Sequence record: ON528734
Strand: one strand, 5' to 3'
DNA from: Shigella phage ESh24
DNA length: 64,000 bases
Numbering within the stretch: the first letter of the stretch is position 1; every line of letters starts with the position of its first letter. A program made the translations under genes and the position numbers. This document shows positions 51,023-59,099 of this stretch, in pieces. A model generated the notes under the pieces. That model was not told the origin of the DNA. It saw nothing but the letters and a program-made list of their open reading frames with translations, and did not search any database.

Positions 51023-52038
51023 TAATTGAGGCCTGAGTATAAGGTGACTTATACTTGTAATCTATCTAAACGGGGAACCTCTCTAGTAGACAATCCCGTG
51101 CTAAATTGTAGGACTGCCCTTTAATAAATACTTCTATATTTAAAGAGGTATTTATGAAAAGCGGAATTTATCAGATTAAAAATACTTTAAACAATAAAGT
51201 ATATGTAGGAAGTGCTAAAGATTTTAAAAAGAGATGGAAGAGGCATTTTAAAGATTTAGAAAAAGGATGCCATTCTTCTATAAAACTTCAGAGGTCTTTT
51301 AACAAACACGGTAATGTGTTTGAATGTTCTATTTTGGAAGAAATTCCATATGAGAAAGATTTGATTATTGAACGAGAAAATTTTTGGATTAAAGAGCTTA
51401 ATTCTAAAATTAATGGATACAATATTGCTGATGCAACGTTTGGTGATACATGTTCTACACATCCATTAAAAGAAGAAATTATTAAGAAACGTTCTGAAAC
51501 TGTTAAAGCTAAGATGCTTAAACTTGGACCTGATGGTCGGAAAGCTCTTTACAGTAAACCCGGAAGTAAAAACGGGCGTTGGAATCCAGAAACCCATAAG
51601 TTTTGTAAGTGCGGTGTTCGCATACAAACTTCTGCTTATACTTGTAGTAAATGCAGAAATCGTTCAGGTGAAAATAATTCATTCTTTAATCATAAGCATT
51701 CAGACATAACTAAATCTAAAATATCAGAAAAGATGAAAGGTAAAAAGCCTAGTAATATTAAAAAGATTTCATGTGATGGGGTTATTTTTGATTGTGCAGC
51801 AGATGCAGCTAGACATTTTAAAATTTCGTCTGGATTAGTTACTTATCGTGTAAAATCTGATAAATGGAATTGGTTCTACATAAATGCCTAACGACTATCC
51901 CTTTGGGGAGTAGGGTCAAGTGACTCGAAACGATAGACAACTTGCTTTAACAAGTTGGAGATATAGTCTGATCTGCATGGTGACATGTAGCTGGATATAA
52001 TTCCGGGGTAAGATTAACGACCTTATCTGAACATAATG
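51023..52038 (+). mobile_element. td group I intron (1016 nt) carrying the I-TevI gene
   Basis: 5' end TAATTGAGGCCTGAGTATAAGGTGAC... and 3' end ...CTGAACATAATG match the recalled T4 td intron; exon frames join across it. Confidence 0.85.
51154..51891 (+). CDS. I-TevI: Homing endonuclease I-TevI (GIY-YIG)
   Basis: 245 aa; GIYQIKNTLNNKVYVGSAKDFKKRWKRH GIY-YIG motif. Confidence 0.9.
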   Translation: MKSGIYQIKNTLNNKVYVGSAKDFKKRWKRHFKDLEKGCHSSIKLQRSFNKHGNVFECSILEEIPYEKDLIIERENFWIKELNSKINGYNIADATFGDTCSTHPLKEEIIKKRSETVKAKMLKLGPDGRKALYSKPGSKNGRWNPETHKFCKCGVRIQTSAYTCSKCRNRSGENNSFFNHKHSDITKSKISEKMKGKKPSNIKKISCDGVIFDCAADAARHFKISSGLVTYRVKSDKWNWFYINA

Positions 52039-52634: not shown

Positions 52635-52914
52635 ATATAAATCCGACTTTGATGTTAATATTCACCGTGGTACATTTTGGGGAAATTACGTCGGTAAAGA
52701 TGCTGGCAGCCGGGAGGCTGCCATTGAATTATTCAAAAAAGATTTTATACGTCGAATTAAATCCGGAGAAATAACTAAAGCACATTTAGAGCCTTTACGT
52801 GGAATGAGGCTAGGATGCACATGTAAACCAAAGCCGTGTCATGGTGATATAATAGCTCATATAGTTAACCGATTGTTTAAAGACGATTTTCAAGTTGAGG
52901 ACTTATGCAATTAA
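52588..52914 (+). CDS. Hypothetical protein with CxCx4CH motif (start uncertain: ATG 52588 or GTG 52630)
   Basis: ORF overlapping neighbours; motif [13 protein letters not shown]. Confidence 0.45.
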
Positions 52915-55169
52915 TTAATGTTATCAAAAGTAGTGGTGTTTCTCAGAGCTTTGACCCGCAAAAAATTATTAAAGTTTTATCTTGGGCAGCTGAAGGAACA
53001 TCAGTCGATCCTTATGAATTATATGAAAATATTAAATCATATCTCCGTGATGGAATGACAACTGATGATATTCAGACTATTGTCATTAAGGCCGCTGCGA
53101 ATTCTATTTCAGTTGAAGAGCCTGATTATCAATACGTAGCCGCGCGCTGTTTAATGTTTGCTCTTCGTAAGCATGTTTATGGGCAGTATGAACCACGTTC
53201 ATTTATTGACCATATTTCTTACTGTGTAAATGAAGGTAAATATGACCCTGAATTATTGTCAAAATATTCAGCAGAAGAAATTACATTTTTAGAATCAAAA
53301 ATTAAGCACGAGCGGGATATGGAATTTACTTATTCCGGGGCGATGCAATTAAAAGAAAAATATCTCGTTAAAGATAAAACTACTGGTCAAATTTATGAAA
53401 CTCCACAGTTTGCATTTATGACTATTGGAATGGCACTGCATCAAGATGAACCTGTTGATAGATTAAAACATGTTATTCGTTTTTATGAAGCAGTATCTAC
53501 TCGACAGATTTCATTGCCAACTCCTATTATGGCTGGTTGTCGTACTCCGACTCGACAGTTTAGTTCATGCGTTGTTATTGAGGCAGGTGATTCATTGAAG
53601 TCTATCAATAAGGCTTCCGCTTCAATTGTTGAATATATCTCTAAACGCGCTGGAATTGGTATTAACGTTGGTATGATTCGTGCCGAAGGTTCTAAGATTG
53701 GCATGGGTGAAGTACGCCATACCGGTGTTATTCCTTTTTGGAAACATTTTCAGACTGCTGTTAAATCATGTTCACAGGGTGGAATTCGTGGCGGCGCTGC
53801 TACTGCTTATTATCCTATTTGGCATTTGGAAGTTGAAAATCTTCTCGTTTTGAAAAATAACAAAGGTGTAGAAGAAAACCGCATTCGTCATATGGATTAT
53901 GGTGTTCAGCTGAATGATTTGATGATGGAACGTTTTGGAAAGAACGATTACATTACTTTGTTCAGTCCGCATGAAATGGGTGGCGAGCTTTATTATTCTT
54001 ATTTTAAAGATCAAGACCGTTTCCGTGAATTATACGAAGCTGCAGAAAAAGACCCTAATATTCGTAAAAAGCGTATTAAAGCCCGTGAACTGTTTGAATT
54101 GCTTATGACTGAACGCTCAGGAACAGCAAGGATTTATGTGCAGTTCATTGATAATACGAATAACTATACTCCGTTTATTCGTGAAAAGGCACCTATTCGC
54201 CAGAGTAACTTGTGCTGTGAAATTGCTATTCCAACAAATGATGTGAATAGTCCTGATGCTGAAATTGGCTTGTGTACTCTCTCTGCATTCGTACTAGATA
54301 ATTTTGACTGGCAAGACCAAGATAAAATTAATGAATTAGCAGAAGTTCAAGTTCGTGCTCTTGATAATCTTTTGGATTACCAAGGATATCCAGTTCCTGA
54401 AGCAGAAAAAGCTAAAAAGCGTCGTAACCTCGGTGTAGGTGTTACTAACTATGCAGCTTGGCTGGCAAGTAACTTTGCTTCTTATGAAGATGCTAACGAT
54501 TTAACACATGAACTATTTGAGAGATTACAGTATGGACTCATTAAAGCATCCATTAAGCTCGCCAAAGAAAAAGGACCTTGCGAATATTATTCAGACACTC
54601 GTTGGTCTCGAGGCGAATTACCTATCGACTGGTACAATAAAAAGATTGACCAAATCGCAGCTCCAAAATACGTTTGTGACTGGTCGTCGCTGCGGGAAGA
54701 CCTTAAGCTCTTTGGCATCCGTAATAGCACATTATCAGCACTTATGCCATGTGAGTCATCTTCCCAAGTTTCTAACAGTACAAACGGTATCGAGCCTCCA
54801 CGTGGACCAGTCTCTGTTAAAGAATCAAAAGAGGGCTCCTTTAATCAAGTCGTGCCCAATATTGAACATAACATAGACCTATATGATTATACATGGAAAT
54901 TAGCTAAGAAAGGTAATAAACCTTATCTTACGCAGGTAGCTATTATGCTGAAATGGGTATGTCAATCAGCTTCGGCGAATACATATTATGACCCACAGAT
55001 TTTTCCAAAAGGAAAGGTTCCAATGTCAATAATGATTGATGACCTTTTGTATTTTTGGTATTTTGGCGGAAAAAATTTCTATTATCATAATACCCGTGAT
55101 GGTTCTGGTACTGATGATTATGAAATAGAAACTCCTAAAGCTGAAGATTGTTCATCCTGTAAATTATGA
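52905..55169 (+). CDS. nrdA: Ribonucleotide reductase large subunit NrdA
   Basis: 754 aa (T4 NrdA length); N-terminal ATP-cone. Confidence 0.95.
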   Translation: MQLINVIKSSGVSQSFDPQKIIKVLSWAAEGTSVDPYELYENIKSYLRDGMTTDDIQTIVIKAAANSISVEEPDYQYVAARCLMFALRKHVYGQYEPRSFIDHISYCVNEGKYDPELLSKYSAEEITFLESKIKHERDMEFTYSGAMQLKEKYLVKDKTTGQIYETPQFAFMTIGMALHQDEPVDRLKHVIRFYEAVSTRQISLPTPIMAGCRTPTRQFSSCVVIEAGDSLKSINKASASIVEYISKRAGIGINVGMIRAEGSKIGMGEVRHTGVIPFWKHFQTAVKSCSQGGIRGGAATAYYPIWHLEVENLLVLKNNKGVEENRIRHMDYGVQLNDLMMERFGKNDYITLFSPHEMGGELYYSYFKDQDRFRELYEAAEKDPNIRKKRIKARELFELLMTERSGTARIYVQFIDNTNNYTPFIREKAPIRQSNLCCEIAIPTNDVNSPDAEIGLCTLSAFVLDNFDWQDQDKINELAEVQVRALDNLLDYQGYPVPEAEKAKKRRNLGVGVTNYAAWLASNFASYEDANDLTHELFERLQYGLIKASIKLAKEKGPCEYYSDTRWSRGELPIDWYNKKIDQIAAPKYVCDWSSLREDLKLFGIRNSTLSALMPCESSSQVSNSTNGIEPPRGPVSVKESKEGSFNQVVPNIEHNIDLYDYTWKLAKKGNKPYLTQVAIMLKWVCQSASANTYYDPQIFPKGKVPMSIMIDDLLYFWYFGGKNFYYHNTRDGSGTDDYEIETPKAEDCSSCKL

Positions 55170-55220
55170 TATAATTTGACTCATGGACGAGTCACTATCT
55201 ATTAACTAAGTGGAAAATTT

Positions 55221-55896
55221 ATGAGCACAGTTTTTAATACAAATCCAGTTGATGTTTTAAAAGAACCTATGTTTTTTGGTTCAGGTCTTGGTATTGCGCG
55301 TTATGATATTCAGCGGCATCGAGTATTTGAAGAACTTACTGAGAAGTCTTTATCATTTTTCTGGCGTCCTGAAGAAGTAAACTTAATGATGGATGCTGCG
55401 CAATTTAATAAGCTTCCTCAGTATCAGCAAAATATTTTTACTAATAACCTGAAGTATCAATCACTTTTGGATAGCATTCAGGGTCGTGCGCCATCTGCTG
55501 TACTTATGTCATTAATTTCAGACCCGAGTCTTGATACATGGGTTGCTACATGGACTTTTAGTGAAACTATTCACAGTCGTTCATATACACATATCATGCG
55601 AAATCTTTATACTGATCCATCGAAGGTATTTGATGAGATTGTATTAGATGAAGCTATTATGAAACGCGCTGAATCCATTGGACGTTATTATGATGATGTT
55701 CTGATTAAAACCCGTGAATGGGAAAATGCTAAAGAATTTGTAGAACTAGCTAAAGAATCTCCTGATGCCGACTTTCGTTTAAACAGGGCTATTAAACAAG
55801 AAGCCGAAGCTAAACGCGCTTTAATGAAATCTCTTTACCTCTGTTTACACGTTATTAATGCCTTAGAAGCTATTCGTTTTTATGTATCTTTTGCGT
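55221..55896 (+). CDS. nrdB: Ribonucleotide reductase small subunit NrdB, exon 1
   Basis: 225 codons ending ...FYVSFA followed by the intron; boundary placed by analogy, accurate to a few nt. Confidence 0.8.
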
Positions 55897-56981
55897 AAAA
55901 TGCGCCTTTAAACGGTAACGTTTATCGAAAACTCCTTTAATTGCTGGAAAGTCCTTTATAGGAAAACTAGCAGCCAAGGTTTTGCTTGCACCTTTAATTA
56001 GTATAATATGATTATACTTTTAAGAGGATGCACAATTGAACTATAGAAAAATTTGGATAGATGCTAACGGACCTATACCTAAAGATTCTGATGGAAGAAC
56101 ATACGAAATCCATCATAAAGACGGTAACCGTGAAAATAATGATTTAGATAATTTGATGTGCCTTTCTATACAGGAACATTATGATATACATTTAGCTCAA
56201 AAAGATTACCAGGCTTGTCATGCTATAAAGCTTAGAATGAAATATTCTCCTGAAGAAATTTCTGAATTAGCTTCTAAAGCCGCAAAATCTAGAGAAATCC
56301 AGATTTTTAATATCCCTGAAGTACGAGCTAAAAATATTGCCTCTATTAAATCTAAGATAGAAAATGGTACATTTCATCTTTTAGACGGTGAAATACAGCG
56401 TAAATCTAATTTAAATAGAGTTGCATTAGGTATACATAATTTTCAACAAGCTGAGCATATTGCAAAAGTTAAAGAACGCAATATTGCAGCTATAAAAGAA
56501 GGTACTCATGTATTTTGCGGTGGTAAAATGCAGTCAGAAACTCAATCAAAACGGGTAAATGACGGTTCACATCATTTCTTGTCAGAAGACCATAAGAAAA
56601 GAACATCAGCAAAAACATTAGAAATGGTTAAGAACGGGACCCATCCTGCACAAAAAGAAATCACATGTGATTTCTGCGGTCACATTGGTAAAGGTCCTGG
56701 ATTTTATCTAAAACATAATGACAGATGTAAATTAAATCCAAATAGAATTCAATTGAATTGTCCATATTGTGATAAGAAAGATTTATCACCATCAACATAT
56801 AAACGATGGCACGGCGACAATTGCAAAGCAAGGTTCAACGACTAGTCTTCGGACGTAGGGTCAAGCGACTCGAAATGGGGAGAATCCCTCTGGGATTGTG
56901 ATATAGTCTGGTCTGCATAGTAATATGTAGCAGTTCATAAGAGAACGGGTTGAGAATTAGCGAGCTCAATCGAACATAACG
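55897..56981 (+). mobile_element. nrdB group I intron (about 1085 nt) carrying a full-length I-TevIII gene
   Basis: 3' end ...TCGAACATAACG parallels the td intron 3' end; exon 2 frame resumes immediately after. Confidence 0.75.
56036..56845 (+). CDS. I-TevIII: Homing endonuclease I-TevIII (HNH), full length
   Basis: 269 aa; HNH motif EIHHKDGNRENNDLDNL; C-terminal Cys-rich zinc finger. Confidence 0.8.
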   Translation: MNYRKIWIDANGPIPKDSDGRTYEIHHKDGNRENNDLDNLMCLSIQEHYDIHLAQKDYQACHAIKLRMKYSPEEISELASKAAKSREIQIFNIPEVRAKNIASIKSKIENGTFHLLDGEIQRKSNLNRVALGIHNFQQAEHIAKVKERNIAAIKEGTHVFCGGKMQSETQSKRVNDGSHHFLSEDHKKRTSAKTLEMVKNGTHPAQKEITCDFCGHIGKGPGFYLKHNDRCKLNPNRIQLNCPYCDKKDLSPSTYKRWHGDNCKARFND

Positions 56982-57484
56982 GTACCTTTAACTTCCATAA
57001 GAACATGGAAATCATGGAAGGTAATGCCAAGATTATGAAGTTCATTGCACGCGATGAACAGCTTCACCTTAAAGGCACCCAATATATTATTCGTCAGCTT
57101 CAATCCGGTACTGATGGTGATGAATGGGTTAAAATTGCCAAAGAGTGTGAACAAGAAGCAGTTGATATTTTCATGGAAGTTAACCGCCAAGAAAAAGATT
57201 GGGCAGTTCATTTATTTAAAGATGGCGATGTTCCTGGATTAAATACAAATAGCATGTGGAGCTTTATTGATTACTTAACTGTATCTCGTATGAAACAGTG
57301 TGGTCTTCCATGCCCGATTACCGATGCTCCGGTTAAACATCCATATCCTTGGATTCGTGAATACCTTAATTCTGATAATGTTCAATCCGCGCCGCAAGAA
57401 GTAGAACTGTCATCTTATCTTGTTGCACAGATTGATAATGATGTTGATGATAAAGTTATGATGAGTTTTAAAAAATACTTTTAA
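56982..57484 (+). CDS. nrdB: Ribonucleotide reductase small subunit NrdB, exon 2
   Basis: In-frame continuation ...NMEIMEGNAKIMKFIARDEQLHL...; C-terminus matches recalled T4 NrdB. Confidence 0.8.
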
Positions 57485-57488
57485 GGAG

Positions 57489-57508
57489 TGGGCCGCAAGG
57501 CCCATTTT
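57489..57508 (+). terminator. Rho-independent terminator after nrdB
   Basis: GGGCCGCAAGGCCC plus T-run. Confidence 0.7.
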
Positions 57509-57511
57509 ATT

Positions 57512-59099
<1,588 letters not shown>

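Follow-up and report, generated by a model that had tools for sequence, protein, structure and literature searches.

The nrdB gene of Shigella phage ESh24 (sequence record ON528734) is, with near certainty as judged from the sequence, interrupted by a group I intron which encodes a catalytically intact homing endonuclease, I-TevIII, and a 6-nt deletion inside this intron has removed the late promoter that lies upstream of the endonuclease reading frame. The window, as the whole analysed stretch of 64,000 nt is called here, is a T4-like (Tequatrovirus) segment, the final 24 kb of which are at most about 95-96% identical to their best full-length matches in the phage collection, G10400, EC128 and RB3. 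The genes of this region are arranged in the order nrdA (52905-55169), nrdB exon 1, the 1085-nt insert, nrdB exon 2, denA and rnlA, and the features of the split gene are compiled in Table 1.

Table 1. Features of the nrdB region of phage ESh24, in coordinates of the window
Feature	Position	Strand	Basis or remark
nrdB exon 1	55221..55896	+	ORF list, spliced translation, Pfam Ribonuc_red_sm
Predicted interval	55877..55896	+	Placed by arithmetic from the cleavage positions in Robbins et al. 2007, PMC1865063
Group I (IA2-type) intron, 1085 nt, ends G56981	55897..56981	+	99.3-99.6% identical to the RB3 and U5 nrdB introns
Ribozyme 5' half	55893..55990	+	Helix placement, canonical pairing, covariation count
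P1	55893-96 with 55902-05	+	
P2	55910-14 with 55919-23	+	
P3 5' strand	55932-37	+	
P4	55942-47 with 55967-72	+	
P5	55952-55 with 55960-63	+	
P6 5' strand	55973-75	+	
P6a 5' strand	55982-90	+	
Middle-promoter-like motif: TGCTTGC (MotA-box-like), 12-nt spacer, TATAAT at 56002-56007	55983..56007	+	Motif scan; function inferred
Shine-Dalgarno-sequestering hairpin	55988..56031	+	Upper stem 56000-07 with 56011-18, 3-nt loop
I-TevIII ORF, 269 aa, TTG start, TAG stop	56036..56845	+	
HNH domain, aa 4-48	56045-56179	+	Pfam HNH_3, E=6e-13
Zinc finger 1, aa 211-231	56666-56728	+	
Zinc finger 2, aa 242-263	56759-56824	+	
Ribozyme 3' half	56822..56981	+	Helix placement, pairing, covariation
P6a 3' strand	56822-31	+	
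P6 3' strand	56832-34	+	
P7 5' strand	56840-44	+	
P7.1	56845-54	+	
P7.2	56858-71	+	
P3 3' strand	56877-82	+	
P8	56884-96	+	
P7 3' strand	56904-08	+	
P9	56913-30	+	
P9.1	56933-46	+	
P9.2	56948-71	+	
nrdB exon 2	56982..57484	+	TAA stop 57482-57484 included

I-TevIII, an endonuclease of the HNH type, is a dimer and has zinc fingers in its dimerisation region. The protein encoded in the window has exactly the same sequence as its counterpart in Shigella phage JK45 (YP_010076315.1) and shares 268 of 269 residues with the RB3 enzyme, the exception being position 23, which is tyrosine here and aspartate in RB3. Cleavage is abolished in the RB3 I-TevIII mutants H26A, H27A, N39A and H48A (Robbins et al., 2007, PMC1865063), and the cysteine pairs C211/C214 and C242/C245 make up two zinc fingers required for DNA binding (PMC1865063); all eight of these catalytic and zinc-coordinating residues are present. 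An earlier note on this DNA had claimed a full-length 269-aa HNH endonuclease with an intact catalytic motif and an intact zinc finger, and this description stands except for the number of fingers, as two C-terminal CX2CX12-13HX3C fingers, and not one, were found. The inactivating HNH substitutions which the same note had named as counter-evidence do not occur, H26, H27, N39 and H48 being kept. Y23 as an inactivating change beside the HNH histidines was considered and rejected, because Y23 is the majority allele, found in 67 records at least 99% identical across the codon, and D23 is the minority variant of the RB3 group.

The TTG start codon at 56036 is located 8 nt 3' of the Shine-Dalgarno sequence AAGAGG, and the same start is annotated in RB3 and JK45. 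An out-of-frame ATG at 56028 was rejected as the start, because it runs into a stop after three codons and abuts the Shine-Dalgarno sequence. A Pfam match to FlgM (anti-sigma-28) at residues 74-114 (56255-56377), with 26.2 bits against a cut-off of 25, was treated as spurious; the same weak match is precomputed for identical proteins elsewhere and is probably a low-complexity or helical artefact. A sequence search of the PDB gave no solved relative of I-TevIII.

The traces of ORF loss in related introns can be followed along short repeats. The I-TevIII reading frame is flanked by 7-nt direct repeats, ACAATTG, at 56032-56038 and 56817-56823, and the ORF-less introns of about 300 nt in CE1, PD112, BYEP01 and SP21535 are exact deletions between them. 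T4 shares with the window the intron, its insertion site and the architecture of late promoter and hairpin, but its intron is 598 nt long with an ORF of only 97 aa, about 490 nt having been deleted between GAAGA(A/C)CATA repeats; the alignment thereby bears out the earlier claim that I-TevIII is truncated in T4 and full-length in RB3. In the window, the end points of the T4-type deletion are the imperfect direct repeats GAAGAACATA and GAAGACCATA, at 56094-56103 and 56585-56594 respectively. The upstream repeat variant is kept by T4 and the downstream variant by FL18 and 215Ecol030PP, which suggests separate deletion events or different crossover points.

In place of AGTATAATATAAATATGATTATACT, found in RB3, T4 and JK45, the window has AGTATAATATGATTATACT, a deletion of 6 nt at 56004/56005 which takes away the only TATAAATA motif upstream of I-TevIII, the consensus of T4 late promoters (PMC10132071). 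The motif is found in RB3 at L001:2301-2308, and between 55850 and 56045 of the window no match to it exists, even if one mismatch is allowed. The deletion falls into the loop of the hairpin in which the Shine-Dalgarno sequence AAGAGG (56022-56027) is predicted to be hidden, and leaves a loop of 3 nt instead of 9; the stem is unchanged with respect to RB3, and the predicted folding energy is -17.9 kcal/mol in the window and RB3 alike, with a z-score of about -4 (-4.2). For the three intron endonucleases of T4, both middle and late internal promoters are described, and only transcripts that start inside a hairpin occluding the ribosome-binding site are translated (PMC2988022, PMC2790892, PMC3014915), with PMC2988022 mentioning the middle and late promoters of the three endonucleases in general terms only.

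In addition to the lost late promoter, a middle-promoter-like motif overlaps the hairpin, and a transcript starting from it would be devoid of the 5' arm of the hairpin. For the ORF of the nrdB intron, a functional middle promoter is said to have been described by Gott and colleagues in 1988. Positions 55988-56007, which overlap this motif, are identical to the start of exon 2 at 14 of 20 positions and represent a putative I-TevIII operator, matching one described previously (PMC2988022). A scan for sigma-70 promoters and terminators, not designed for T4 middle and late promoters, gave no excess of sites over shuffled sequence.

These signals suggest a mode of expression in which, on transcripts reading through nrdB, the endonuclease's ribosome-binding site would be hidden in the hairpin, and in RB3 and T4 transcripts starting inside the intron would lack the hairpin 5' arm and could be translated. 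With TATAAATA lost, I-TevIII of the window would be produced only from the retained middle-type promoter or by leaky translation.

Among the known systems, RB3 (Eddy and Gold, 1991; PMC1865063) has the intron at the same insertion site, with the same core, TTG start, Shine-Dalgarno sequence and hairpin stem; besides the six missing loop nucleotides and the exchange at residue 23, the window differs from it in the nrdA-nrdB spacer, which in RB3 harbours mobE and here comprises only 51 nt (55170-55220). This short spacer leaves no place for either mobE, as present in T4 and RB3, or hef, as present in U5, Lv5cm, SP21535, FL12 and FL18, and neither gene was found anywhere in the window by the ORF list and the gene map, so that the nrdB intron has no free-standing endonuclease at its disposal for mobilisation in trans. 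A short hairpin, TGACTCATGGACGAGTCA, lies inside the spacer at 55177-55194. The intron of JK45 (NC_054940.1), a Tequatrovirus intron with the Y23 allele, is base for base identical to that of the window save for the 6-nt indel, as JK45 keeps TATAAATA. In phage U5 (AY262133.2), on the other hand, the non-coding part of the intron matches at 100%, 6-nt deletion included, and the Y23 codon is common to both; U5 differs by a 2-nt frameshift and two substitutions in the ORF, by hef upstream of nrdB and by an exon 1 which is only about 91-92% identical.

The deletion allele was found elsewhere in 12 records from 11 phages of the collection, all with a frameshifted, internally deleted or absent ORF. 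Besides U5 with its frameshifted ORF, these are FL18, FL12, 215Ecol030PP and Lv5cm, with T4-like internal ORF deletions; F26, FL23 and G8, for which the matches cover only 56% of the intron; LH2 and FL44, for which the same truncation is deduced because the matches end at the truncation point; and the ORF-less SP21535. Contigs encoding the identical full-length protein have kept TATAAATA in all ten cases examined, and the window is the only case found in which an intact ORF is paired with the promoter deletion. It is carried by 3' cores of the RB3 type and of the T4 type alike, the latter distinguished by five substitutions including a compensatory pair in P9, and may thus be a recurrent slippage event or have been moved by recombination. 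Several carriers of the deletion allele possess hef upstream of nrdB, and hef could make the nrdB intron mobile in trans in the way known for MobE and the nrdB intron of T4 (PMC2790892). One metagenome scan gave no match to the deletion allele. An exact-pattern scan of IMG/VR also gave none, and as the RB3 allele, included as positive control, likewise remained without a match, this database is uninformative on the deletion allele.

A second intron with a similar strategy resides upstream of nrdB in the same window. The td gene is split by a group I intron of 1016 nt (51023-52038), the I-TevI ORF of which (51154-51891) is full-length, with 245 aa and the GIY-YIG, zinc-finger and DNA-binding domains, and the spliced thymidylate synthase has 286 aa in frame. 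As known from T4, td/I-TevI and nrdB/I-TevIII have in common a group I intron in a gene of nucleotide metabolism, an ORF looped out from P6a, an internal promoter and occlusion of the ribosome-binding site by a hairpin; they differ in the host gene and in the enzyme, I-TevI being a monomeric GIY-YIG and I-TevIII a dimeric HNH endonuclease. Upstream of I-TevI, a late-promoter-like motif, AATAAATA (51123-51130), is found with one mismatch to the consensus.

The nrdB intron of RB3 is mobile in dependence on I-TevIII, although the enzyme has a low specific activity and homing, with a plasmid donor, amounted to 4.3% per recipient (PMC1865063). Compared with RB3, exon 1 of the window is 93.9% identical in its 5' part, 96.9% in 55701-55830 and 98.5% in its last 66 nt; the value then climbs to 99.9% in the I-TevIII ORF and 100% in the 3' core of the intron, and drops to 98.4% in exon 2. 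The comparison with U5 equally gives its maximum in the intron and not in exon 1. Such a peak of identity at the intron is the footprint expected of an intron transfer with co-conversion of the flanks. The intron of the window is likely to be competent for autonomous homing, with the reservation that this competence is less certain because the late promoter is gone, and it would probably still be mobile, perhaps with a lower efficiency or a changed timing. The earlier note had anticipated a probably mobile nrdB intron alongside the td intron: the latter is indeed present with its spliced frame intact, while the mobility of the former appears weaker than claimed, given the deletion of the late promoter and the occurrence of the allele otherwise with defective ORFs.

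An unlikely though still serious alternative is that the same intron splices normally and the I-TevIII gene is effectively silent, with too little enzyme made for homing, an early stage of homing-endonuclease decay in which the deletion would be too recent for the ORF to have been damaged yet. The loss of TATAAATA would be in line with such silencing, as would the intact hairpin, which with -17.9 kcal/mol would block translation from upstream transcripts, the confinement of the allele otherwise to introns with defective ORFs, and the absence of mobE and hef for mobilisation in trans; U5, with the same non-coding intron plus a 2-nt frameshift and two substitutions in the ORF, looks like the next step of decay. 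On the other side, the MotA-box-like motif and the TATAAT element are retained at the right spacing and would give rise to a transcript without the hairpin 5' arm, and the ORF is unchanged with respect to JK45. Furthermore, promoters may decay after the death of the ORF and create the same association, and the presence of the deletion on both core types points to a perhaps recurrent or recombined event rather than to one decaying lineage. An intron that is probably still capable of homing on its own, perhaps with reduced or shifted mobility, remains the preferred reading.

Much less probable is that the missing 6 nt result from faulty sequencing or assembly and that the element is in reality an intron of the JK45/RB3 type with its late promoter. 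The site, TATAATATAAATATG, being a short AT repeat, is prone to slippage, but the identical allele is present in 12 independent records, including U5 (AY262133.2), and the alternative hairpin of U5 is already known from the literature (PMC2988022, Figure 5 legend).

With respect to the RNA, helices P1 to P9.2 could be placed on the window sequence with every pair canonical, including the pairing of T55896 with G55902 in P1, the internal guide sequence. Helices P7.1 and P7.2 between P7 and the 3' strand of P3 are the defining feature of subgroup IA2, and their presence fits this subgroup. The I-TevIII ORF extends at its 3' end, TAG stop included, into P6a, P6 and the P7 5' strand. At the gathering threshold, an Rfam scan of the whole window gave no match, and a relaxed scan gave a partial match of 34 bits to RF00028 (threshold 50), with the 5' half misaligned into the ORF; this low score is explained by the 810-nt ORF in the P6a loop, which splits the core. 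The natural ORF-less intron of phage CE1 (about 304 nt), the core of which is 100% identical to that of the window outside the hairpin loop, reaches 68.6 bits against the same threshold of 50. Both halves of the ribozyme are 100% identical to RB3, and positions 56846-56981 are 100% identical to RB3, U5 and CE1.

Covariation was assessed over 73 pairs in 14 helices and seven distinct homologous cores (window/RB3/CE1, T4, FL18, S16, HY03, DCP80 and SG1), with 99.2% of the cells paired, a value to be read with the small number of sequences (seven) in mind and with the structure having been drawn from the window's own sequence. Compensatory changes on both sides occur in eight pairs, distributed over P2, P5, P7.2 (with one), P9 and P9.2, and slid controls, in which the partners were shifted by 1-3 columns, gave no compensatory pairs. 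The nrdB introns of T4 and RB3 are known from the literature to splice. From the identity of the core to the RB3 intron, we infer autocatalytic, guanosine-dependent splicing also for the window: the intron RNA would fold, excise itself and join U55896 to G56982, thereby restoring a Cys codon and the NrdB frame.

Two matches to the intron in other phages were noted in passing. An 89-nt section of the 3' core (56891-56979) is 86.5% identical to Pseudoalteromonas phage pYD6-A (NC_020849.1:16993-17079), where it lies in an annotated 'ATPase' gene, a match which may indicate that this distant marine phage has a related, unannotated group I intron. Escherichia phage DCP80 (Gaprivervirus; L024 301-609) possesses an ORF-less intron of the nrdB type, 89.6% identical to that of the window with several compensatory changes; in its record no CDS for exon 1 is annotated upstream of the intron, and the nrdB gene of DCP80 is probably mis-annotated.

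The earlier note had placed the intron of about 1085 nt at 55897-56981, and these boundaries turned out to be exact to the base. Joining of 55221-55896 to 56982-57484 in the spliced translation gives a NrdB protein of 392 aa without interruption, in which T55896, the final base of exon 1 and first base of the split codon, is reunited with exon 2 to the Cys codon TGT and the junction reads ...FYVSFA-C-TFNFHKNMEIMEGNAK... A single Pfam match to Ribonuc_red_sm (residues 33-335 of the spliced product) spans the splice junction. T55896 is also the U expected in front of a group I 5' splice site, and G56981 is the final base of the intron. A synthetic exon junction of 90 nt is found as one contiguous piece, with 98.9% identity, in intronless phages such as RB32, RB33 and ECML-134, and by this comparison the boundaries are proven; the same 98.9% over 90 nt equally makes these stretches matching candidate target sequences of I-TevIII in intronless phages.

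That no intron exists at all, and that nrdB is split into two polypeptides with a free-standing endonuclease gene in between, as the annotation of two nrdB CDSs (with labels such as nrdB_1 and nrdB_2) plus a hypothetical protein in many records would have it, can be given practically no credence, as a group I core identical to that of the window exceeds the RF00028 threshold, the intron helices show covariation, a U precedes the 5' splice site and a G ends the intron, the junction falls inside a codon which is exactly restored on joining, and the curated records of RB3 and T4 give nrdB as a joined CDS. The correct annotation of nrdB is therefore one joined CDS, with I-TevIII within a group I intron, where many related GenBank records instead carry two nrdB fragments and a hypothetical protein. 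Downstream of exon 2, the mechanically called denA ORF (57488-57922) starts with GTG at 57488, right after the nrdB stop, and crosses a GC-rich hairpin, GGGCCGCAAGGCCC (57490-57503); the denA start annotated in RB3 and JK45 corresponds to ATG 57512 of the window (411 nt, 136 aa).

The nrdB intron with an intact I-TevIII is already known and common. The nrdB region is matched by 926 phage records; of these, 128 contain the intron, 84 of them with at least 80% of its length covered, and the carriers include phages of Escherichia, Shigella, Salmonella, Yersinia and Klebsiella; the exact I-TevIII protein is indexed in 294 blocks of a public assembly collection. The 84 records and 294 blocks make the feature an ordinary one, of little importance beyond correct annotation. 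The allele found in the window bears on the question whether promoter loss comes early in homing-endonuclease degeneration. Tentatively, and with the balance of probability rather against it, the window can be viewed as showing the onset of decay in a homing endonuclease gene, with a perfect ORF and the late promoter lost, and U5 as showing the next step. If this were true, regulatory loss would precede coding decay in this lineage, and I-TevIII would here be limited to expression at middle times or be effectively silent. The combination of an intact ORF with the promoter loss of the U5 type provides a natural test of the share of the late promoter in homing.
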